Source: Eledone cirrhosa
Lineage: Eukaryota
NCBI GenBank assembly: GCA_964016885.1
Contig: OZ024741.1
Span: 160,704,001-160,768,000, forward strand
DNA: 64,000 bases
Direction of reading: 5' to 3'
Made by a program: the position numbers and the translations under genes. The notes under the pieces are model-generated. The model had not been told where the DNA came from. It did not search any database and saw only the letters and a program-made list of their open reading frames with translations. Of the stretch, positions 1,574-57,913 are shown one piece after another. The first letter of the stretch is position 1. The number at the start of each line of letters is the position of its first letter.

Positions 1574-4500
1574 CACCCGAAGCAGACAATGATCTGAATA
1601 CTGAGATAAATAATACCTGGAACAGAGATACGGCCACTGAGGAGATGAATGCTGACGGGCTAGGACAAGATTTGGTTGACATCCTAAATTTAGTGGTAGA
1701 TGAATTGAACAATGATAGTGGGAGACTTATGAACCTAAGATTTGTAGACAGGAAAAAGAAACAACAGCTAAGGTAAACAAAGTCATCCCATACCTTGAGG
1801 CGAGGAGCCTTCACCAGTGCAACAATATCCTCAAAGCAACAGCAAATACGGTGAGGAAACTACTTGGTATAAAAGCGAGAGGAAACAACAGACAAGAAAG
1901 AGCAGAGCCTTGGTGGAAGAAACGACTGAGTGGTCAAATCAGGGAAATGAGAAATGACATTGGAAAGCTTGAGTCACTACTGAATGGGACACTAAAAAAC
2001 ATAGACACTAAAAATAGACTGGAAATAAAGTACAAAACTAGGAGGAAAAAGCTAAATATTATCATAGAGGAACTGAAGCAACGCATTGTAGCAAAGAGTG
2101 CAAAAATCAGGCGATACGAGAACAGAATCAGTCAGTATAGACAGAACCGCATGTTCGACAACAACCAGAAGATGCTGTTTGGACAGCTTGAGGGGAAAGA
2201 AAGAGGCAATGACTTGATCCCTGAGGCGGAACAAACTAAAACATTCTGGAGAGGAATATGGGAGCAGGATGTTAGACATAATGACCAGGCAGTGTGGATT
2301 GAGACAGTACAGGAGATCGGTGAACAGGCACACCAACAAACTGATTTGAGTATCACAGTTGAAACTCTTAAGGGGCAGGCCAAAAAACTAACCAACTGGA
2401 AATCACCAGGCCCAGATGGTGTGCAGGGGTATTGGATTAAAAATATAACATCCCTCCACCCGAAACTGACAACCATGTTCAATGACTGCTTGATGTCAAG
2501 TGAGGTACCAGAGTGGTTGACAAAAGGTACCACAGTTCTGATAATGAAAGACCGAATCAAGGGTAATGATGTTACCAACTATAGACCTATCACATGTCTG
2601 TCCGTAATGTGGAAACTGTTGACGAGCATTGTGTCTGAGGAAATCTACCATCACCTCCACACAAACAACTTGTTACCGGATGAACAGAAAGGATGCCGAA
2701 AGAAGTCACGTGGTACAAAGGACCAGTTACTTATTGATAAGATGGTAATGGGGAATTGCAGGAGGAGACACACTGATCTTGCCATGAGATGGATAGAGTA
2801 CAGAAAGGCATTTGACATGGTGCCTCATTCTTGGATCACCAAAAGCCTGGAGATCTTCAAGGTGGCAGATAACATCAGACAGTTGTTGGCAAAAGTATGA
2901 GGTCCTGGGAAACAGAGTTGACATCAACTGGAGAATCCTTGGGAAGCGTGAAGATCAAGAGATGTATCTTCCAGGGAGATAGCCTGTCCCCTCTGTTGTT
3001 TGTCCTTGCCCTGATGCCCCTGACCAGTGTACTGCGAAAAGTGAGAGCAGGATACAGGTTGGGAAAGGGAGGGCTTACCATCAATCACCTCCTCTTCATG
3101 GACGATCTTAAGCTCTTCGGGAAGAGTGAGAAGGAGTTGGATGTGCTTGTTGACACTGTCCGTATTTTCAGCAGTGATATATGTATGCAGTTTGGTATTA
3201 GTAAGTGTGGAGTCATTGTGATGAGGAGGGGTAGGTTGAGCAGAAGTAATGGAATCCAGATACCAACAGGTGAGATGATAAAGGAAATTGACTCTGAGGA
3301 AGGATACAAGTATTTGGGCGTTCTGGAGGCTGATGGCATAAAGAACAAAAAAATGAAGGAATTGTTAAGAACTGAATACATTCGGAGAGTAAGGAGCGTA
3401 TTGAAGTCACATCTGAACAGCAGAAATGCCATAAGCGCAGTAAATTCCCAAGCTGTGTCTATTATTAGGTACAGTGCGGGAATTCTGAGATGGAATGTTG
3501 CTGAACAAAAATAAATGGATAGGAAGACTAGGAAGCTATTGACTATCTACAACATGTTCCACAAGAGGAGTGATGTCGATAGACTCTACCTAAGGAGATC
3601 TGAGGGTGGAAGAGGTCTTATCAGCATAGAGGACTGTGTTCAGATGGAGAAAAACAACCTACACAAATAGGTGACTGATAGTAAGGAGCCAATGCTCAGA
3701 ACTGTACTGAAGGAGGGGACAATAGGCCAGGGGATGTCCAAGGAGGAAATAACATCAAGGAGAAAGAGCAGCCTTCAGGAAAAATCCCTTCATAGTACCT
3801 TCTTTGAGAAAACTGAATTTAGAGATCCACAGACATGGAACTGGTTGAGAAGAGGAGACCTTAAAAAGGCTACAGAAGGAATGTTAATGGCTGCGCAGGA
3901 GCAGGCCCTCAAAACGAAGTGGTTAAAACACCATATTTACAAGGAGGAGGCTAGCCCACTGTGCAGGATCTGTGGAGAGAGAGAGGAGACTGTGGCTCAC
4001 ATTGTATCCGAGTGTAAACACCTAGCCCAGACCCACTATAAGGGCTGGAGACATGATGTGATGGGCAGGGTGATCCACTGGCACCTGTGCAAAGTAAACA
4101 ATTTACCACATTCTGAGAAATGGTATGAGCATAGGCCAGAGGCGGTGATGGAGAACGATCAGGTGAAGGTGCTGTGGGATTTTAGGATACAGATGGACAA
4201 GAAACTGGAACACAATAGACCTGACCTGGTGGTTGTGGACAAAGAAAAAAGATTGTGTCTGATTGTGGATGTGGCCTGCCCATTCGACACGAGAGTGCAA
4301 AAGAAGGAGAGGGAGAAAATTAACCGGTACCAGGACTTAAAGTGGGAGGTAAAAAGGATTTGGAACTGCCATGAAGTCAAAGTGATCCCGATTGTCATAG
4401 GCGCACTGGGGACTATCTCCAAAAGTTTCCAGGGATGGTTAAAGAAAATCGGCCCCTTCACGCTTTTTGGAACGCTTCAAAAGGCATGCTTGCTGGGAAC

Positions 4501-4611
4501 AGCAAGAACCCTCTGATACGTCCTGAATATCTGAGGCTGCAGGTAGTGGCTTGATATTCATTCCAACGGACTTTCCGGTTAACTAACATCAATGACTCAA
4601 GGAGTAATAAC

Positions 4612-30600: not shown

Positions 30601-32345
30601 ACATCATCATCATCATCATCATCATCGTTTAACATCCATTTTCCACGCTAGCATGGGTTTGGACGGGAATTGTCCCACTTGAGGCAAGATTGGTTGTCTT
30701 GCTCAGGACTGTCTGGCGGGTTTTCTACGGCTGGATGCTCTTCCTAACACCAACCACGTTTACAGTGGACTGGGAGGTTTTTACCATGTTACCTACACGG
30801 CCACATTACAGCGTGGACTGTGTTTTTTTTGTCGTGACACCTACACGACCTCATTTATTTCGGACTGGATGTTGTGGTACCAACATAACTTTACATCGAA
30901 AGGGGTGGTGTAGATGGCGGTGAGGGTAGGGTTAGTGGATGGGGATGTATTTTGGTTAAGAGGTGCCTACTGACTGTAGGTTTCGCTTTGTACTTAGGCA
31001 AGGCGGGTCTTTTGTATTACTGTGTAGCGCCAAAGATCTTGGTCCAGTGACATCGTCTTGGAGAGGTGTAAGTGTGTGAGGTCGGATTTTATCAAGTCGT
31101 CCCAGGTTTTTCTGGGTCTGCCTACTCCGTAGCTACTGTCTATTTTGATCGTCCTGCACTTTTTTATACAGCTGTCATCTTTCATGCACATCACATGACC
31201 ATACCAACGTAGTCTTCTCTCAAGTAAACAGTATCTGATCCCTCTTATTCCTAATTTCTCACTTAGTTCATTTATGCTTTGCCGTTCGGGCATATTACTA
31301 TTACACATCCAACGGAGCATGCAAGCTTCGTTCCTCTCCAGTCTGCGTAGATCCTCTGCACACAAGGCCCATGTCTCACTGCCATGTAACATTGCTGTTC
31401 GTATGCAGGCATCATACAGCCTGCCTTTTATTTTTAGAGAGAAACCTTTAGCGGCCAATAGTGGTATAAGCTCTCTGAACTTTTTCCATTCCATTCGGAC
31501 TCTAGCTACAGTACTTTCGGAGCACCCTCCACCACTGCTGATTTTGTCACCCAGGTAACGGAAGGTGTCCACTATTTCTATAGAACCATCTGGGCAATGG
31601 AATGAGCTAGTATTCTGTGGGCATTTGCTGCTACTTATTGCACCAGAGCACCGGCCACATATAAAATCTATATTCTTAGTTAGCTTACCTGTGATCCCAC
31701 TACATCTTTTATGCACCCATACTTTGCATTTTGGACATAAAATGGAGTTTCTGCCTACTCCTTTCCTACACACTGAGCATGGCCATTTCCCAGATGGGAC
31801 CAGTGCCCTATTCTCCTTCCTACATATTAGGACTTTAGTCTTAGACAAGTTAACTTTAAGGCCTTTTGATTCTAGGCCATGCTTCCAAGTTTGGAATTTC
31901 TTCTCTAGCTCAGCCACTGATTCGGCTATGAGCGTTAGATCATCTGCATATAGAAGTTCCCATGGGCAGCCGGTCTTGAACTCCCTCCTCCGTTATAGCT
32001 TGGAGGGCAATAATAAATAAGAGGGGGCTAAGGACGGAGCCCTAATGAACACCAACTTTTACGCTAAACTCTTCACTATATTCGTTGTTAATTCTAACCT
32101 TGCTGACTGTTTCTTTATACATGGCTTGTATAGCTCTCACAAGCCATTCATCTACACCTTAGTTTTCTAAGAGCCCACCAGATAATGGAGCGGGGGACTC
32201 TGTCAAAGGCTTTCTCCAGGTTTACAAAAGCTAAGTAGAGGGGGTGTACTTTTAGCTAGGTACTTCTCCTGTAGTTGCCGTACAATGAAAAGAGCGTCTG
32301 TGGTATTTTTACGTGACACAAACCCGAACTGCATTTCATCTAGAT
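30601..32345 (-). mobile_element. 5'-truncated RTE LINE (RT + PHD finger + 3' UTR + (GAT)n tail)
   Basis: FVNLEKAFDRVPR, GSVLSP, ELLYADDL, then ORF 30994-31917 with RRLRWYGHV and GRPRKTW. Confidence 0.9.
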
Positions 32346-37004: not shown

Positions 37005-38767
37005 TTGAAGAAAACCGTCTGTGATGTCAGTGATGGAGTTTTAGATCATACCAATAGAAAGCATAAGGACTGGTTCGATGAAAATGATGCAGAGATCCAG
37101 ACATTGCTTGAAGAGAAACAAAAAGTGCTGACATCATTTTTGTGTGAAACACGTTCTGACAAGGGTGACCAGACCTTTAAGCAGATCAAGGCACGTGTGC
37201 AACATCAATTGAGAGCCAGATACCTGGTGGAGAAAAAACGCTGATGAAATCCAGAAAGCCTCAGATAGACATAGCTCTTATACAATCTGCTCGGAGAGGT
37301 GTATGGGCCAACCGGTCCACAAATATCACCACTTCACTCCAAAGACGACAAGGAATTACTCAGAAATCCTGATCAGGTAACATGACTACTTTGATGAGCT
37401 CCTCAACAGACCATCAGAAATCGATGATGAGTTCATCCAGTCGATTCGATCCAGACCTACAAAGCTGGCAATAGCTGATCCTCCTTCATTTGATGAGGTG
37501 GCGAAGGCCATTGCCAAATTAAACAGCGACAAGTCACCTGGAATGCTGTGCTGAGGTCTTCAAGTGTGCTGGTGATAACTTTTTGAACTGCCTCACTGAT
37601 CTCTTTGTGAATGTTTGGAAAGATGCATTGATGGTGGTACTTTACAAAGAAATGGGAGCCAAAGATGATTATGGCAACTGCAGAGGTATTTCACTGCTAT
37701 CTGTGGCTGGGAAGATCTTGTGCAGGATATTGTTGGACATATTGATACAGCACATTGCTGTTGAAGTACTCTCTGATTCCCAATGTCGCTTTAGGAATGG
37801 CAGAGGCACTGTTGACATGGTCTTCTCGGCCAAAGAACTTCAAGAAATGTATTGAGCAATGCATGGACTTATACCAATTTTTGTCTATCTGACCAAGGCA
37901 TTTGACACTGTAAATCAGAGGGCTTTGTGGGTTATTTTGGAGAGATTGGGCTGTCCTGAAAAGTTTGTGAACATACTCAAGCTCTTCCTCGATGACGTGC
38001 AGGCATGGATAAACATTGGAGGTAAATTGTCTGAGCCAATCTCAGTTAAAAATGGTGTCGAGCAAGGTAATATACCTGCACCAACTTTGTTTGCTTTGTA
38101 TTTCACAACAGTGTTCTTCATGGCCTTCAAGAATTGTCAATACAGTATCTATCTGAGATATCGCACTTCCAGCAAGCTGTTCAACCTCAGGCATCTCACT
38201 GCCAACACTAAGGTATTGAGTACCATGATCAGAGAATTTCTGTATGCAGATGATTGTGATCTCTTTGCACACTCTCAGAGTGACATGCAATACCTTATGG
38301 ATTCTTTTTCCAAAGTGTGCAGTGCTTTGGGACTGACAATCAGTCTGAAGAAGACTGTTGTCATGTACCCACCTGCTCCTGATAAAGATTGTGTATTTGG
38401 AGAGTACTCTGAGTGTGACCTGCTCTCTGGATGCAGAAGTTGGTCTGCGTGTTAGTAAAGCAAGTGAGTCATTTGGAAGGCTCAGTAACCATCTTTGGTG
38501 CAGGCGAGGAATCACAATGAAGACCAAGGTGAAAATGTATGCCGCATATGTAGTGTCAGCTTTGCTGTATGTGTGTGAGATGTGGGTTGCCTACAAAGAG
38601 CATATCAAAAGACTGGAACGATTTCATCAGCAGTGTCTCAGAAAGATGCTCAGTAACAAGTGGCAGATGCATGTGAGTGATGTTGAGGTCCTTGACAGAA
38701 GTGAGTGTCAGAGCATTGAGAGTATCATCCACCAACAACGTTTGCGATGGACCGGACACCTCTGCAG
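37005..38767 (+). mobile_element. Degenerate RTE/BovB-like LINE, broken off at RWTGHLCR by the PLE complex
   Basis: DWFDEND.EI, CRGISLLSVAGKIL, LTKAFDTV, GVEQG...APTLF, FLYADD, RLRWTGH. Confidence 0.88.
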
Positions 38768-38773
38768 ATATAT

Positions 38774-41157
38774 AAGGAATGAGAAAATTTATTTTGTCCG
38801 TAGATTAAGGGAATTTTTAGATTTTAGTATAAAGAATATCTCCTCTGCGCAGAGGTCACATGTCTCAGAGGATGAATTAAAAGGAATCCCTCTTGAGACT
38901 ATATTCCAAGCCGTCGAATATCTAACGTTATCTAGCTTAAGTTGCCAGAGTACGCCTGATAGTGCCGTTGAAGATTTTTTGCTTGGATCTGTGAAAGAAT
39001 TCTTGTGGTTATTATAGCGAAGTTTAAATTCCGTCGATGTGGAACCGACGTAGTTAAAAGAATTAGAGTCAGTTTTAACATTACAATTGTATACTATATT
39101 TTTAACTAAGCAGTTGTTATTTAACGGACATTTAGATCTATCTCTACAGTTACATTTGTTAACTTGTATATTATTTATGCTATTATCACTAGGTTTTAAG
39201 TTCCTATTATTTATTCTATTAATATTTTGTGCTAAATTTTTGGTGGATGAGTAGGTTAATTTTATAGTATGTCTATTGAAAATTGAGTGATACCTATGTG
39301 TTCTAGGGAAGCGATTATCAAGAGCTTTAAAAAATAGTTTAGCGATGTGGGTTTTAATGTTTAGTGAGAAAGGGGGGGCAAACCAAATTATGTTCCTAGT
39401 TCTATTTCTTTTTTGGCCTTTGGAATTATTGTAATGCTTTCTATTATAGTTGTTAAGGTTGTTGCCGTAATTAAAATAGTTGTTATTTTGTTTAGTTTGT
39501 CTATCATTATCTATGTACATAATCTTATCAGTATATCCTGCTCTAGCTAATGCTTCATTGTAGTATTGGGCTTTTTCGTCGAAAATCTTTCTATTCGACG
39601 AGATCCTAGAGATACGTTTTTGAACAGAGTTTACTATAGTGTTTTTGACAGATCTGGGGTGGTTAGAGTTAAAGTTGACATAGTTTAAGTTTTCATTCAA
39701 CTTGTGAAAAGGATAGTGAAGACATGTGTTGAGATTTAATGTTATATCTAGGAAATTGACTATTCTATGGTTGTTCTCAATTTCTATTTTAAGATTAAAG
39801 TAATTAAAAAATTGTGTAATTTGTTTACATTTTCTATTTAGTTCAGAGTTATTATTATCAATAAGTAAAAGCATGTCATCTCTATATAAACCTCCGGTAG
39901 TACCAGGTATTTTCCTATGTAGCGAATTGATTAAAAATAAGCCCACAAGGTCAGTTACCTGAGCTGAGTCGGGTGATCCCATAGTAATGTCAAAATTGCT
40001 ATCTCTATCTGCTCTGGTCCATAGTTGGTCATTAAATTCTATCAAAGTTTTCCTAGCCGATAATATAATATGCATTTCATTGCTAGTTAGGTCAGTATGT
40101 TTGAATGCGTAATTTAGTGCCTTATTTAGTAGATTAGGGGTAATAGAAGAATAATAGTTAGCAATATCAAGTTGAATAAACTTATTATTATTGTTATATT
40201 TAATTTGCTTAAACCACTCAACAACCTCTCCAGTTCCCTTCCACAAGCTCAGGTTAGATAAACAATCCAAGTTCTTAATTTGCTGTATCACCCTGTCAAG
40301 AATGTTTTTGCTTAATTTGCCCAGGTCCGATTTTGATGGTGCGATCAATCTAACTGGCAAGTCATTTTCAAAATTCCTCTTGTGATCTTTCATATTGATC
40401 TTCGGTTTCCTGGGCACGAAAGGTTGTGTTCTGTTCTCAATTTCCAACTCGTGCATTATACAAGATGCTTCGACATTCATTTTCTCAAGCTCGGCCTTAT
40501 CTGCTACCTTGTACTTTTTCCTCAGTTCCTTCAGTATGAGGCCATTATACATGTCTTTCTGCACTCCATAGAGGTTGTTGGTCTTGTCAGATTTCACCAA
40601 GATCTTCTCAGTTTTTTCTAAGCTCTCAATATTATCCTTAATGCCTTTCAGATATTCCTGGCCTTTGAAGTTTCTCTTGAATTTGACCCCTTGTATGATA
40701 GAAATTACATCGTTTTCAAAGTCAGATAAAAGTTTGTTAGGGGGTGGATTTCTTTTAGATTTGAAAACTTTGTTTAAGTCCGAGACATTTTCATTTATAT
40801 TAGATTTATCAAAGTGGAATGCTCGCCACCTGATTCTCCTTATAAAAGAGTCAGATTTATCTATTAATTGTTTTATAAAGTCTTTGATTGTAGGTAGAGG
40901 TATGTCTTTTAAAGAGGAAGTAATCTTAAAGAATTCCATTTTTCCAGTTATAATATAAAGCGCTCAACAGTATTGGAGCAAGATACATGGAAAGTTATAT
41001 TTAAATTGTTGGGTTACAACTAGTAAATATTTATAACTGATATAAAAGCACTCGACAAGTATTTGGACAAGTATACTCCAAATACTTGTCGAGTGCTTTT
41101 ATATCAGTTATAAATATTTACTAGTTGTAACCCAACAATTTAAATATAACTTTCCAT
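38774..41157 (-). mobile_element. Penelope-like element, Naiad-type, with a perfect 81-bp inverted repeat at its 5' end
   Basis: See the ORF entry. Arms 40987-41067 and 41077-41157 are exact reverse complements with a 9-nt loop. The element abuts the (TA)n array. Confidence 0.9.
38789..40939 (-). CDS. PLE RT + GIY-YIG endonuclease polyprotein, 716 aa (Naiad-type)
   Basis: SLKDIP.P..FIRRIRWRA N-terminus. RT motifs LDIANYY, DITMGS.DSA, LYRDD, VNFLDITL. CNC-x5-CP-x4-C linker, then IVY..YVG.T...FK.RYNNH and CDLC.EE. Confidence 0.92.
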   Translation of the reverse strand: MEFFKITSSLKDIPLPTIKDFIKQLIDKSDSFIRRIRWRAFHFDKSNINENVSDLNKVFKSKRNPPPNKLLSDFENDVISIIQGVKFKRNFKGQEYLKGIKDNIESLEKTEKILVKSDKTNNLYGVQKDMYNGLILKELRKKYKVADKAELEKMNVEASCIMHELEIENRTQPFVPRKPKINMKDHKRNFENDLPVRLIAPSKSDLGKLSKNILDRVIQQIKNLDCLSNLSLWKGTGEVVEWFKQIKYNNNNKFIQLDIANYYSSITPNLLNKALNYAFKHTDLTSNEMHIILSARKTLIEFNDQLWTRADRDSNFDITMGSPDSAQVTDLVGLFLINSLHRKIPGTTGGLYRDDMLLLIDNNNSELNRKCKQITQFFNYFNLKIEIENNHRIVNFLDITLNLNTCLHYPFHKLNENLNYVNFNSNHPRSVKNTIVNSVQKRISRISSNRKIFDEKAQYYNEALARAGYTDKIMYIDNDRQTKQNNNYFNYGNNLNNYNRKHYNNSKGQKRNRTRNIIWFAPPFSLNIKTHIAKLFFKALDNRFPRTHRYHSIFNRHTIKLTYSSTKNLAQNINRINNRNLKPSDNSINNIQVNKCNCRDRSKCPLNNNCLVKNIVYNCNVKTDSNSFNYVGSTSTEFKLRYNNHKNSFTDPSKKSSTALSGVLWQLKLDNVRYSTAWNIVSRGIPFNSSSETCDLCAEEIFFILKSKNSLNLRTK

Positions 41158-47100: not shown

Positions 47101-48428
47101 ATACGATATTAATAAATGGAAACTATATTTATAAAACCATATTTATTTCATTATACATATTTCAGGGATACCAAATTAAATTATGGTATGCCTTCATCAG
47201 ACAAAATACAATATATAACAGTTTTACAAATAAGCTTTGACGTACCCTTTTAAAATGCAACCATTATTTTTGGAAGCCATCTGGATAACAATTGAAGACG
47301 CACGCAAATATTTATTCATACATATGTATGTGTATATATATATATGTATATGTATGTGTGTGGGTGAGAGTTATGTGTGTGCATGCCTACCCACGAAGTT
47401 TTGATTGCAGATATGCATAATTTTAACAGAATGTTAAATGCATGAATGGTAATCGTATATATGAAGGCATGAATGTTAATCGTATATATTTATGTATATA
47501 TACTGTGAACTTTTTATAACGCAAGGAATGTATAGCAGTGATTAAGAGAAATCATTTGCGTTTTGTATGTCTATATTGTAGACCTGAGTAGATATAATTT
47601 CTATTTTCAGGACGTGTGTATATATATATATATATATATATTTGTCTATCTTTGCCGTAAGATAGTGGTTTCTCAAATTTTAGTATATTGATCTCAAGTT
47701 TTAAACTAAACATATAATCATTATTAAACAATGTTTAATTTCTGATATTATATATTTATGTCCCATTCATGAATATTAATATTTATATTTTTATTATTCA
47801 TTTCATATAAATTGTTAACTCAACTTAATATGACATGACGTAAAGTTTTCATTATCTCCCCCTCTCTCTATATATTATTTCTCTCTCTTGAGTTTTTCTA
47901 TCTGTCTGATGACTTGATATCTCTCTGTTGCTTTCCTCTGTTTTTCTTATTACTTCCTTTTTTCTTTTTCTTTTTTCTTTCTTTCCTCCTGTCTTTATTT
48001 ATCTCTCTCTTTTTTCTCCATGCATTTCTCTCTCTCCGATATTTCTCCACGTTTTTTTTCTTTTTCTTTTTTCTCTCTGTCTTTTTTCTTTCTCTCCATC
48101 TTTTTTCTAATTGTCCTTAACACTAAGACTTATTAAAATAATATAAACAATTCACTATCCAGATGGCTTCCAAAAATAATGGTTGCATTTTAAAAGGGTA
48201 CGTCAAAGCTTATTTGTAAAACTGTTATATATTGTATTTTGTCTGATGAAGGCATACCATATTTTAATTTGGTATCCCTGAAATATGTATAATGAAATAA
48301 ATATGGTTTTATAAATATAGTTTCCATTTATTAATATCGTATATCTACTCCAAATACTTGTCGAGTGCTTTATATCAGTTATAAAAATATTTACTTGTAT
48401 CCCAACAATTTTAAATAGAACTTTTGCA
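47101..48428 (+). mobile_element. Non-coding PLE derivative: 187-bp inverted repeats carrying hammerheads, followed by a copy of the Naiad 5' leader
   Basis: 47101-47287 is the near-exact reverse complement of 48156-48342. 48346-48428 matches 41074-41157. Confidence 0.8.
48235..48299 (+). ncRNA. Type I hammerhead motif (inverted copy at 47144-47208, minus)
   Basis: TATTTTGT-CTGATGA-AGGcATACCA..TGGTATcCCT-GAAA-TATGT-ATA-ATGAAATA. Same architecture as 30506-30572. Confidence 0.78.
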
Positions 48429-48429
48429 T

Positions 48430-49446
<1,017 letters not shown>

Positions 49447-50188
49447 TATTAATAAGAGGAATTCCAACTTTGTCTGATTTACTCGTTTTATTTACAATCT
49501 TTTAAAATATATAATGGTATTATAATGAAATAGTATGATAGAATATTAAATTCTAAGTGTTAATTGAACAAGTACTTTCATGCTTTCGCAATCTTCAGGT
49601 TCATAATACGTGGTGACAGTCGAGTTTGCAATTTTCAATTGTAATGAGATGGGTAAATTTCCTACCTTTTATACATTTTATACAGAGAAAAGTGGCTCCA
49701 GAATGCTAAGCCCTGTAAACTGTATTTCGACCAATCAGTGTGTAGTTTCACTGAATTACTACAGCTGATTGGTTTAAGCGTCACGGCTGGTTGAGCATGC
49801 TAACGACCAATAATCATATCCAAAGCATCAATTGTTTTGCTATTTTTAGAAATGATGAAAATAGCATTTTCTATTAATCATCACCATCAACATCACTTTT
49901 ATTATTATTGTTGTTGTTGTTGTTGTTGTTAGTGGTCGTGGTCATAGTGATAGTAGAAGTAATACCCCTAAGCGTTATTATTGTTCATTTAGCTTGGGTT
50001 TGAATTTATCAATAAAATTCTTTTCTTTGATTTTTCTCTTGATTTCACTTGGGCTGTGTAATTTGTATTAATATAATCTTCTATACACAATCATTGTATT
50101 AATATAATCTTCTATACACAATCATACACACCCGTGTATATTTACCTATCTATATCTATATGTATATTCCTATTGTGTATATGCCAAC

Positions 50189-51454
50189 ATGTCTGGAAAG
50201 CAACAAATGAAACCAACAGAATCAGAAAGAATTCTAAAGGAGATATCATCGAAATTATCAACACTTATCACGATGATGGACACACAATCGTCTATTTTAA
50301 AGGAAATAGAAAAACAATCTACAGACGGAAAACTTATAACTGAACATATAAACTCTGAAATTAAGAATTTAGCTGAAATTATACCAACAGTTATCAAAGA
50401 TACAAGAGAAAGCCTACCACAACCCCCTTGGATGTCAGAAATAAACGAAAGAAATTTGGAAAACAAAACACATCGAATAAGAAAAGAAATGTGGAAGACA
50501 TGGAAAAAATTCCTTACCATTAGAAAACAAAATTTCTGGAAAGCATACAGATGCGAAAAATATGTCGAAACACATTCGAAATGGCTCTCTAACGGCACCC
50601 ATACTCCCTCGTAAATACCTAATTACAGAAATTGCAGGAGAACCAGAAGAAGAAACAAAACTCCGATGGGAACTTACATTGACAAAATTCAGGACCGACA
50701 TCTCCATTTCTGAATGTAAACAATCCCGCTACAAAGCCAAATATGAAGCTATTGATGACCAAATTGAAGTTGAAATGTATGGCAGCAGAAACAATTATTT
50801 CTCGATGAATATGCTGCAAATTACGGTAAAGACTCTGGAACCCTGAGAAAAAGCATTAAAAGTGGACAATCTCATCAACACATCATACACCAGAACACGT
50901 GCCAACACAAACACTCACCTTACCTTGAATCAAAGAAGAACTACGGTAATAACCCTTCGCTTTGTCTACAAAAACACCCTATCGCACACAACATGAACAA
51001 AAAGCACAAACACGATAGATATTCCTTTGACCAGACCATGAGAAGTAGTAAAACCAGGAGATCATTCTCAAGATCTCAACAGAGACTACCAACAAGGAAT
51101 GTGGAAACAAAACGTAGAATAACCAGATCACTCTCAAGATCTCAACAGAGATTGCCCACAAGAAACTGGACGAAAAAACGATCCAAACCTGAAAGCAAAC
51201 CTAGGTCATTTTCCCAGATTGTTAAAAATAAAAATAATGCTAACAGGAAGAAAAATAATATACAGAATACCAAAAATAGGACAAAATACATAACGAAACC
51301 AAATATAATATCACGACCAAAAGTTCATCAAGCGAACACCAACAAGAATATAAATCCTGAACAGAGAAAAATCCATTTTTTAACGTCAGGACAACAAAAA
51401 CCGGAAAAAGAAAAACTCCAGGAGGAAACATACCCAAAACAGCTGTACACGTAG
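50189..51454 (+). pseudogene. PLE upstream ORF1 (helical/coiled-coil N-half, basic R/S/K-rich C-half), broken by two frameshifts
   Basis: Coding-like pieces at 50189-~50598, ~50598-50777 (PILPRKY..EIAGE) and 50774-51454. Contains a duplicated RS.SRSQQRLPTRN. Confidence 0.7.
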
Positions 51455-53688
51455 ATCCTAAAATAATTAATTTATCTAAAAGAGATCTTGACAATGATGA
51501 AATGCAAATTCTGTCAAAAGGACTGAAATTCACACCGACTCCAACAGTCAACCACCAAGAACTGAAGGAGGATACCCAAGAATTCTGTCGAAAATTACGT
51601 CTTGTAGAATTCTTCGCTGATAAAAATAATGAGAGTGATGAATCACTAGTAAAGAATAAATCAAATTTCACTCCGCCAAAAGGAAGAAATATCTATCTCG
51701 ACCAACACATTGACATCCTGTCTAAATTTCCTCTTAGACATAATACTAATGTTAGGCCAAACATTAACAAATCAGAAATGTCTGCACTTAAACGTATACA
51801 AAATGATAAAACAATAATAATTAAACAAGCAGATAAAGGGGGTGCAGTTGTTATAATGGATACTGAATACTACAAGGATTTGGTTGAGGAACAACTGAAA
51901 GACACAACATTCTATCATGAAATACCGTCAAATATAGACCACAACATCATGAAGAAGATCAACAACCTGGCTTCAAAATACCACAACTCATTTACTGATA
52001 AGGAAAGAGACTACATCACCAATTTTGAGCCGAAACCCAGCAACCTGTATGGCCTACCGAAAGTTCATAAGTCAAAAGAAATACAACTGGCAGTAAGAGA
52101 ACAAAACAGTGAGTACATTAAATTATTACACCCAAAAGACTTAAAACTTAGACCCATTATAGCTGGTCCAACATGCCCCACCCACCGTCTAAGCAATTTT
52201 GTTGACATTATTTTGAAACCACTATGTATTCACATACCCAGTTTCATCCGGGATGATATCAACTTCCTGTCCCATCTTCCCAAAACCACGGAAACGAATT
52301 CACTTCTACTCAGTTTTGATGTGGTAAGCCTTTACACCAACATTACACATGATTTAGGAATAAAGGCGGTTAAATACTGGGTGGAAAAACATAGAGAAGT
52401 GATTCCCATTAGATTCACAGCACCATTTATATTAGACGCAGTTAAACTTATTCTGGAAAACAACACTTTCTTCTTCAATGGAAAGAATTACATCCAAATT
52501 AGAGGCACAGCGATGGGAACGAAGTTTGCTCCCGTTTACGCGAACTCTGTAATGGGATACTTAGAACAACAACTCTACCAAGAAATAGAGGAAAAATATA
52601 GTACTGACTTTAGAAAGTACATTGAAAAATCTTGGAAGAGATACCTTGACGACTGTTTCATCATCTGGACAGAATCTCTAGATACTCTGGATGAGTTCAA
52701 TATCCTCCTGAATAACCTACACCCATCTCTCCAATTCACAAAAGAGATGAGTAGGACCAAATTACCATTCCTAGATATAATGATAATCAAAAACGACACC
52801 ACCATTACCACGGATATATATTATAAACACACAGACACCCATCAATATCTGAATTTTAAGTCGTGCCATCCACCTCATACAAAACGCAACATCCCATACT
52901 GCCTAGCCAGAAGAATTTGTACCATTGTAGAAGATACGAATACCAGGTACAAACGCCTAACAGAACTAAGAGAATTTTTGCTCAAGCAAAAATACCCATC
53001 TCTACTTATAGAAAATGGCATACAGCGGGCTATAAAAATACCTATACAACAACTTAGAACAACCCAAGGAAGAAGAAACCAAGAACTGGTCATACCATTT
53101 ATAATGACACACAACCCATGTCACCAGAATATCTTCAACACTGCCAAAGTAAACCTACCGATCATTGCTCAAAGTAATGAATTAAAAGGCTTAATCACAG
53201 ATCGATCTTTGACTCTTAGTAAAAGACAGCCAAAAAATTTGAAACAATTACTAACAAAAGCAAAATTTGACCTTAACAACAAAGACCAATCATTCACTGT
53301 ATCTAAATGCAATGATAGTCGATGCGGCACATGTCAATCCATACACGCCGGTCAATATATGAAAACAAAAACTGGAAAAATATTCCCAAATGCAAATATG
53401 AACTGCAAAAGCAGAAATCTAATTTACTGCATTAAATGCCCGAATTGTGAAGAACTATATGTCGGTCAAACTGGAAATGCACTATCGGAACGTGCACGGG
53501 TACACCGTCAACAAATCAGAGACCCAAATGTCCGTCAGATACCCCTAAGCAACCACCTAGCAACATGTGGTCAGGGAATATTTATAATATTCCCATTCTA
53601 CAAATTACACAGCCCAAGTGAAATCAAGAGAAAAATCAAAGAAAAGAATTTTATTGATAAATTCAAACCCAAGCTAAATGAACAATAA
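51361..53688 (+). CDS. PLE RT + GIY-YIG ORF (open from 51361, first ATG at 51502)
   Basis: IINLS..L...E..ILSKGLKFTPTP, IIKQADKGGAVV, YGLPKVHK, RPII, FDVVSLYTNI, GTAMGTKFAP.YAN, RYLDD, PFLD. C-x4-C-x2-C linker, then LIY.IKC..C...YVGQT...R...H. Confidence 0.95.
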   Translation, partial: TEKNPFFNVRTTKTGKRKTPGGNIPKTAVHVDPKIINLSKRDLDNDEMQILSKGLKFTPTPTVNHQELKEDTQEFCRKLRLVEFFADKNNESDESLVKNKSNFTPPKGRNIYLDQHIDILSKFPLRHNTNVRPNINKSEMSALKRIQNDKTIIIKQADKGGAVVIMDTEYYKDLVEEQLKDTTFYHEIPSNIDHNIMKKINNLASKYHNSFTDKERDYITNFEPKPSNLYGLPKVHKSKEIQLAVREQNSEYIKLLHPKDLKLRPIIAGPTCPTHRLSNFVDIILKPLCIHIPSFIRDDINFLSHLPKTTETNSLLLSFDVVSLYTNITHDLGIKAVKYWVEKHREVIPIRFTAPFILDAVKLILENNTFFFNGKNYIQIRGTAMGTKFAPVYANSVMGYLEQQLYQEIEEKYSTDFRKYIEKSWKRYLDDCFIIWTESLDTLDEFNILLNNLHPSLQFTKEMSRTKLPFLDIMIIKNDTTITTDIYYKHTDTHQYLNFKSCHPPHTKRNIPYCLARRICTIVEDTNTRYKRLTELREFLLKQKYPSLLIENGIQRAIKIPIQQLRTTQGRRNQELVIPFIMTHNPCHQNIFNTAKVNLPIIAQSNELKGLITDRSLTLSKRQPKNLKQLLTKAKFDLNNKDQSFTVSKCNDSRCGTCQSIHAGQYMKTKTGKIFPNANMNCKSRNLIYCIKCPNCEELYVGQTGNALSERARVHRQQIRDPNVRQIPLSNHLATCGQGIFIIFPFYKLHSPSEIKRKIKEKNFIDKFKPKLNEQ

Positions 53689-54069
53689 TAACGCTTAGGG
53701 GTATTACTTCTACTACCACTATGACCACGACCACTAACAACAACAACAACAATAATAATAATAATAATAATAAAAGTGATCTTGATGGTGATGATTAATA
53801 GAAAATGCTATTTTCATCATTTCTAAAAATAGCAAAACAATTGATGCTTTGGATATGATTATTGGTCGTTAGCATGCTCAACCAGCCGTGACGCTTAAAC
53901 TAATCAGCTTTAGTATATTCAGTGAAACTACACACTGATTGGTCGAAATAGAGTTTACAGGGCTTAGCATTCTGGAGCCACTTTTCTCTGTATAAAATGT
54001 ATAAAAGGTAGGAAATTTACCCATCTCATTACAATTAAAAATTGCAAACTCGACTGTCACCACGTATTA

Positions 54070-54108
54070 TGAACCTGAAGATTGCGAAAGCATGAAAGTA
54101 CTTGTTCA
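54070..54108 (+). ncRNA. Minimal hammerhead in the Neptune-type pLTR (inverted copy at 49565-49603, minus)
   Basis: TGAAC-CTGAAGA-t-TGC gaaa GCA-t-GAAAGTACTT-GTTCA. Palindromic AGTACT helix III. Confidence 0.82.
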
Positions 54109-54283
54109 ATTAACACTTAGAATTAAGTATTCTATCATACTATTTCATTATAATACCATTATATATTTTAAAGGATTGTAAATAAAACGAGTAAATCAGA
54201 CAAAGTTGGAATTCCTCTTATTAATATAATCTTCTATACACAATCAGACACACCCGTGTATATTTACCTATCTATATCTATAT

Positions 54284-57913
<3,630 letters not shown>

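Follow-up and report, generated by a model that had tools for sequence, protein, structure and literature searches.

A conserved slippery heptamer probably couples ORF1 to the reverse transcriptase of a Neptune-like Penelope element in Eledone cirrhosa by −1 frameshifting

Canonical endonuclease-bearing (EN+) Penelope-like elements (PLEs) are single-ORF elements according to the abstract of Craig et al. 2021 (PMC8557442). Esterases have been reported for Neptune-like elements (PMC5408684), and an esterase ORF1 was described in PLEs in a paper whose main text does not mention a frameshift (PMC3905857). A PLE ORF1 can be separated from the reverse transcriptase (RT) by a frameshift with a pseudoknot, as stated in the legend of Fig. 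1 of PMC8557442 (bioRxiv 10.1101/2021.04.23.441226). Within the literature covered, including passages of PMC3846280, PMC6431247, PMC5718144, PMC6515669 and PMC13159263, this legend was the only place where an ORF1/RT frameshift of PLEs was found in print. The original prediction for the locus presented here had taken EN+ PLEs to be single-ORF elements, in agreement with that abstract, but the novelty it implied is reduced by the legend. With the Neptune-clade EN+ PLEs of PMC8557442 our element shares the RT with C-terminal GIY-YIG domain, the CCHH finger, the CX4CxxC linker, pseudo-LTRs with an inverted copy and a (TA)n insertion site. It differs from the single-ORF organization of the abstract by a separate ORF1 of 449 aa, from the PLEs described in that paper also by an ORF1 with neither a Pfam match nor an esterase and by an RT frame without ATG.

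The element lies in a window of 64,000 nucleotides, the whole stretch of DNA analysed. The RT-GIY-YIG frame has 775 codons (51361-53688, + strand), with the landmarks ADKG at 51829, YLDD at 52642, CNDSRCGTC at 53308 and LIYCIKCPNCEELYVG at 53419. Pfam matched RVT_1 with 27.9 bits (E 2.4e-6), below the cut-off of 29.6, and GIY-YIG at residues 687-773 with 27.7 bits (E 3.4e-6), above the cut-off of 22.6; the GIY-YIG domain is C-terminal to the RT, as in C-terminal EN+ PLEs. The CCHH finger has two cysteines between GIY and YIG (LIYCIKCPNCEELYVG, HRQQ, NHL), and CNDSRCGTC fits the CX2-5CxxC linker between RT and EN that characterizes Neptune and is shared with Nematis. Pseudo-LTRs, another trait of C-terminal EN+ PLEs, are present: an inverted copy of the 3′ end (49445-50067, − strand) is 92-98 % complementary to the 3′ pseudo-LTR region (53599-54228, + strand), and a short direct repeat of the 3′ tail ahead of ORF1 (50063-50167, + strand) holds D2/D3 repeats matching 54216-54289. 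A (TA)n microsatellite follows the element at 54270-57900 (limits approximate), a similar tract is located at about 48400-49445. By eye, a minimal hammerhead-ribozyme-like motif was seen at 54070-54108 (+ strand; CUGAAGA and GAAA cores, stems I and II); both stems appear in the fold, which was no better than those of shuffled sequences, and Rfam gave no hammerhead match. Rfam returned chance matches only, mostly to the TA tracts. Judged by sequence, positions 50189-53688 are a Neptune-like, endonuclease-bearing Penelope element with a separate ORF1, Neptune-like because of the CNDSRCGTC linker and the CCHH finger; the RT tree holds fetched loci and proteins and no named Neptune references. All five families seen in the E. 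cirrhosa genome have a separate ORF1 and depart from the single-ORF description. Elsewhere in the window, a 724-codon frame (38789-40963, − strand) resembles, on inspection by eye, a further Penelope-type RT with C-terminal GIY-YIG, and frames at 1719-4516 (+), 30994-31992 (−) and 38349-39017 (−) were judged by eye, from their translations, to be broken RT frames of non-LTR retrotransposons.

ORF1 (50189-51454, + strand) codes in intact copies for 449 aa, with long helices at residues 11-241 (high-confidence prediction) followed by a basic, disordered tail. The window copy is broken: compared with four intact copies, 2 bases are missing after 50584 and 88 after 50776. Because ORF1 is interrupted upstream of the junction, this copy is itself unable to make the fusion when translation begins at the ORF1 start (50189). 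In the ORF1 tail, 66 nt are duplicated in tandem (51048-51179), with RSxSRSQQRLPTRN present twice. Profile searches with 50 % clustering yielded 568 homologues at E ≤ 0.001, and the final search added only 4 new proteins. Pfam had no family for the query, and no family was matched by more than one of 90 members. Foldseek found no structure at E ≤ 0.001, Atlas matches were all under 0.9, the best VIA match had a Z of 9.1, within the generic range of helical bundles, and no relatives were found among viral contigs. We infer a structural, RNA-binding role for ORF1. Its C-terminus at 51422-51454 consists of EETYPK and four further residues and would be missing from the predicted fusion. A similar motif, [DE][ET]Tx[PVL]K, was observed 2-4 residues from the stop in about 14 relatives, which have 22-40 codons between heptamer and stop.

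At the junction, ORF1 reads H-F-L, with CAT at 51374-51376 and the heptamer T TTT TTA at 51376-51382 (+ strand) in the X_XXY_YYZ register for a −1 shift. The RT is in the −1 frame, which is open from 51361 after a TGA and overlaps ORF1 up to the end of the ORF1 stop at 51454. A heptamer of this type in register within an open overlap is the layout of a programmed −1 frameshift. The conserved RT motif IINLS (51463) precedes the first in-frame ATG (51502), and none of the near-cognate starts CUG, GUG, UUG and ACG occurs in the RT-frame leader. Register, frame and missing ATG had all been part of the original prediction, and a check against the sequence found every coordinate correct. Among 16 canonical heptamers in 50189-53688 it is the sole one with TTTTTT. 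A second canonical heptamer in −1 register within the overlap, C_CCA_AAA at 51433-51439, is lost in several copies. U_UUU_UUA is also the slippery heptamer of HIV-1 gag-pol. ORF1 and RT-EN are very probably joined by a programmed −1 frameshift at U_UUU_UUA. A slip at this site would yield an ORF1-RT-EN fusion with a predicted length of about 1,190 aa, and most ribosomes would stop 23 codons past the site and free the ORF1 protein alone, in gag-pol fashion. For such gag-pol-like expression, as originally proposed, layout, register and conservation are observed, whereas the slip itself and the fusion protein would follow from them. ATG-based annotations would cut off the RT N-terminus of such PLEs.

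A junction search in the 3.0-Gb genome gave 1570 first-look candidates, of which 40 were scored. Over all searches, 93 loci of the window family (family A) were obtained, 80 of them distinct; four were truncated below the junction, and the 76 remaining copies are the best-scoring ones and no random sample. The heptamer was present in −1 register in 73 of these 76, one copy had a substitution in the heptamer, and two kept the six T and had gained a base downstream. The longest open RT frame had 870 aa among 150 listed copies, the longest ORF1 frame 565 among 104 copies. The offset between ORF1 and RT is a true feature of the family and not an indel, and the single-frame consensus that would have contradicted the original prediction was found neither among family copies nor among ORF1 homologues. 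A copy-specific indel or an assembly error in the homopolymer, in a family with one long ORF, might be suspected from the other indels of the window copy and from the frame fusions of a minority of copies in family B and, at the junction, of 2 of the 76 family A copies. The copy counts refute this reading, since a run of five or seven T occurred in 0 of the 76 copies; no indel was listed at the T-run in four public runs (at most two samples of one study, possibly including the source of the assembly), and the best 150 of the 568 ORF1 matches included no long fusion, none of these proteins exceeding 706 aa. Such an artefact has hardly any probability left. The same holds for slippage of the RNA polymerase, which would leave some transcripts with an extra base. 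The site does consist of a run of six T, but six bases are short for polymerase slippage; the G_GGU_UUY of relatives has only 3-4 T and suits re-pairing of tRNAs, and the spacing of pause signals in codons described below points to ribosomes.

The slippery site was also found outside family A. Families B-E of the same genome, with RTs about 45-50 % identical to the window RT, share this site: TTTTTT[AG] stood in register at 27 of 32 loci, two had no RT match and three lacked it, and a separate look at family B copies also showed the site; related elements are included in these family counts as in the cluster counts below, so they are not independent samples. Family B has the junction UUUUUUAGGG (L130, L231), which resembles the HIV-1 slippery site, and in its commonest form an in-frame ATG seven codons ahead of IINLS. 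In a minority of the copies of this family, the frames are shifted or fused by a poly-C tract whose length varies. Open frames of more than 1,100 aa numbered five among the 150 matches listed, mostly of family B; of two fused copies inspected, one arose from a deletion and one from the variable poly-C tract. Outside loci numbered 89, of which 58 reach the RT N-terminus. Families A and B were added and seven loci without motif or with an open 5′ end were dropped, giving 53 loci in 46 clusters. The 14 clusters without an ATG before the RT motif had canonical heptamers in the right register in 12 cases and in the wrong registers in 3 and 2, with 4.7 expected; for the 32 clusters with ATG the counts were 17 right against 11 and 15 wrong, with 17.0 expected. 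For the class (UUU|GGG)UUUN, chosen after the data were seen, the clusters without ATG had 10 right against 0 and 0 wrong (0.5 expected) and those with ATG 8 right against 0 and 1 wrong. A site of this U/G type was absent in 4 of the 14 clusters without ATG. In the RT tree, made by a quick method and with several long branches, all seven DNA-backed members of the window clade carry U_UUU_UU[AG], while L095 and the G_GGU_UUY group fall outside this clade. The latter group (L075-L103, 14 loci of one assembly) is a separate PLE clade with G_GGU_UUU/C and an ORF1 stop 0-2 codons on. Three PLEs of animal type listed under bacterial assemblies or the names of symbionts (L104, P0010, P0051) are most likely host contamination.

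Homologous ORF1 proteins mostly have a Phe-Leu near the C-terminus. We analysed 150 proteins (147 new matches and P0001, P0002, P0004; the gene models P0003 and P0055 were excluded), 87 of which were full-length with 340-540 aa. Phe-Leu occurred within the last 50 aa in 75 of the 87 and was missing there in 12; the two bins before this had 6 and 9, and Leu-Phe occurred in 6. The residue ahead of Phe-Leu always was one with a U-ending codon: His in 25 of the 75, Ser, Pro, Arg and Asn in 10 each, Tyr in 5. Lys, Gln, Glu, Met and Trp were found in 0 of 75, though they make up 19 % of nearby residues. Ala, Thr, Val and Ile never stand there despite their U-ending codons, possibly an effect of the E-site tRNA. 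The terminal Phe-Leu may be read as the amino-acid trace of N NU UUU UUR, the heptamers being deduced from residues. In the mussel gene model P0055, ORF1 is joined to the RT with IINLS skipped. Clusters, other families, Phe-Leu proteins and the preceding residue together point to a conservation of the heptamer beyond chance. Almost every copy and many distant relatives keep T TTT TTA, which makes a one-base backward slip of ribosomes likely here; a programmed −1 frameshift of the window element is very likely, conserved and partly anticipated in print.

The T-run may alternatively be the pyrimidine tract of a 3′ splice site, with a spliced mRNA joining ORF1 codons to the RT frame. Splicing is the serious rival because TTTTTTAG resembles an acceptor; a G-starting codon, i.e. 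TTTTTTAG, follows Phe-Leu in 54 of the 75 homologues, a CAG of matching phase lies six bases on in the window (51387-51389), and PLEs are known to carry introns (PMC8557442). However, a consensus scan placed the donor-like sites in ORF1 of families A-D all in phase 1, whereas the acceptor needs phase 2, and found none in ORF1 of L031. Three of 21 tails without the G lack a possible same-phase AG before the stop, the GGGUUUU group has no fixed AG, and Phe-Ser, which TTTTTCAG acceptors should produce, shows no enrichment (4, 9, 8). An acceptor also needs no fixed open ORF1 frame up to the T-run, yet this frame is kept across proteins of 20-45 % identity. An intron between ORF1 and RT, named beforehand as a contrary outcome, is not supported by donor phase and tails, and we consider it improbable. 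A further alternative to frameshifting is a separate start of the RT. In a set of related PLEs (L046, L047, L053-L055, L057, L059, L063), the long upstream ORF belongs to another family, frame offsets vary, the RT has an in-frame ATG and there is no slippery site; by its sequences, this set apparently has a second way of expressing two ORFs. For the window element, reinitiation or internal initiation at the ATG at 51502 or a near-cognate codon, with Phe-Leu kept for the function of the ORF1 protein, has parallels in these relatives, in the ATG before IINLS of family B and in a fish Neptune element described with two non-overlapping ORFs (PMC12602865). But a start at 51502 would lose the conserved N-terminal motif, and a protein motif needs neither a U-ending preceding codon nor six T in the DNA of 12 families. 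Independent initiation thus fits the L046-L063 group, perhaps family B, but not the window family, where it has a very small probability and frameshifting at the heptamer is preferred.

A classical stimulator, a hairpin or pseudoknot 5-9 nt downstream, was not found locally. The window sequence downstream of the heptamer folds with −3.4 kcal/mol, no better than shuffles (z +0.7 to +0.9), which bears out the earlier failure to see a convincing hairpin, and a simple enumerator of our own detected no H-type pseudoknot. The stimulator of the window family is no local RNA fold; long-range or protein-bound structures are possible. The G_GGU_UUY group shares a bulged hairpin, conserved and with covariation, that lies 7-9 nt downstream: 78 % of the cells were paired and 3 of 8 pairs had two-sided changes, against 11-38 % in slid controls, in a test on 11 related sequences from which the structure itself was drawn. 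Five DNA-backed families with exactly 10 codons to the ORF1 stop (C, E, L037, L051, L095) have weak folds of 0 to −6.0 kcal/mol over 60 nt, family C with −0.8 kcal/mol, compared to −8.5 to −17.4 in six other U-type families, window excluded; the comparison includes related families (C and E; B and D).

The distance from the Leu codon to the ORF1 stop was never below 9 codons in the 75 tails and exactly 10 in 22 of them; at the stop density of the window in the same frame, 0.07 per codon, about half are expected to stop within 9 codons. The median identity among these 22 is 28 %. On the ORF1 tree, the 9-11-codon class requires 11 changes, of which well-supported branches enforce at least 8, and it is still clustered by descent. 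Twenty of the 50 tails with at least 12 codons contain R-x-K, P-[PGD] or G-G ending at codon 10-12, against 5.8 expected from residue shuffles (0 of 5000 shuffles reached 20); R-x-K and G-G-G were noticed in the tails before the motif list was fixed, and each motif derives mainly from one or two clades. A stop or motif was present at codons 10-12 in 45 of the 75 tails, at 4-6 in 11 and at 7-9 in 6, and at codons 10-12 past other Phe-Leu pairs of the same proteins in 5 of 94; 30 tails have neither at codons 10-12. The window family stops 23 codons past the heptamer and has K-E-K at codons 9-11 (51407-51415, + strand), a candidate pause site; R-x-K is at this position in five of the eight nearest relatives and in P0055. 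A strict multi-ribosome period of 10, 20 and 30 codons was not supported, with 21 of the 75 tails at 12-17 codons. For L037, L051, L095 and family C, with sites 84, 198, 168 and 75 nt away, the RT N-terminal motif was rejected as cause of the 10-codon peak; it appears to set the ORF1 stop in families A, B and D.

R-x-K and Pro-Pro/Gly/Asp were reportedly described as collision motifs by Han et al. in 2020. Disomes leave footprints of 59-60 and 62-63 nt, which correspond to two ways of stacking that differ by one codon, and pause sites are enriched in Gly and Asp dipeptides (PMC7397865); ribosome queues form behind ribosomes arrested at stops (PMC7544508). With this disome spacing and the A site of the leader at codon 11, the follower would therefore have UUA in its A or P site. 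The best candidate for a stimulator is a leading ribosome paused 10-11 codons on, behind which the next would wait on the slippery codons. In a large PLE clade, a ribosome paused by a stop, R-x-K, P-[PGD] or G-G at 10-11 codons past UUA may thus stimulate the −1 slip without RNA structure; the RT output would rise with ribosome loading, and K-E-K of the window would be a weakened form. To this model we assign somewhat less than an even chance; for the window family itself it is doubtful. The roadblock pattern speaks clearly across the clade and faintly, through K-E-K, in the window family. Neither a ribosome roadblock as stimulator of frameshifting nor the spacing rule was found in the collision literature and papers covered, which are a thin sample.

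For a widespread EN+ PLE group the single-ORF picture is corrected, the RT being probably part of a gag-pol-like fusion. If the paused-ribosome model is true, it adds a class of −1 frameshift signals in which a collided ribosome pair, usually regarded as a trigger of quality control, serves programmed recoding. Of these findings, the spacing pattern most deserves a test, for which short natural cassettes exist, e.g., of family C. In cardioviruses and arteriviruses, a protein roadblock downstream replaces the RNA fold; in the PLE proposal, the obstacle would be another ribosome, halted about 30 nt on by a stop or pause codon. The frameshift in the legend of Craig et al. also lies between ORF1 and RT, but it is coupled with a pseudoknot, and none was found in the window. 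HIV-1 gag-pol as described in PMC13712778 likewise slips at Leu UUA in a U-rich site, and its structural protein exceeds the enzyme fusion, but it has an adjacent RNA structure, and none is predicted for the window family and the five families with the stop at codon 11. In SARS-CoV-2, the place where the 0-frame stop lies and trailing ribosomes also affect −1 frameshifting (Bhatt et al. 2021, PMC8168617). That stop, at a distance of five codons, aids refolding of the pseudoknot, and a wider spacing of ribosomes favours shifting; the roadblock model involves no structure, and the dependence on ribosome loading that it predicts is the opposite one.
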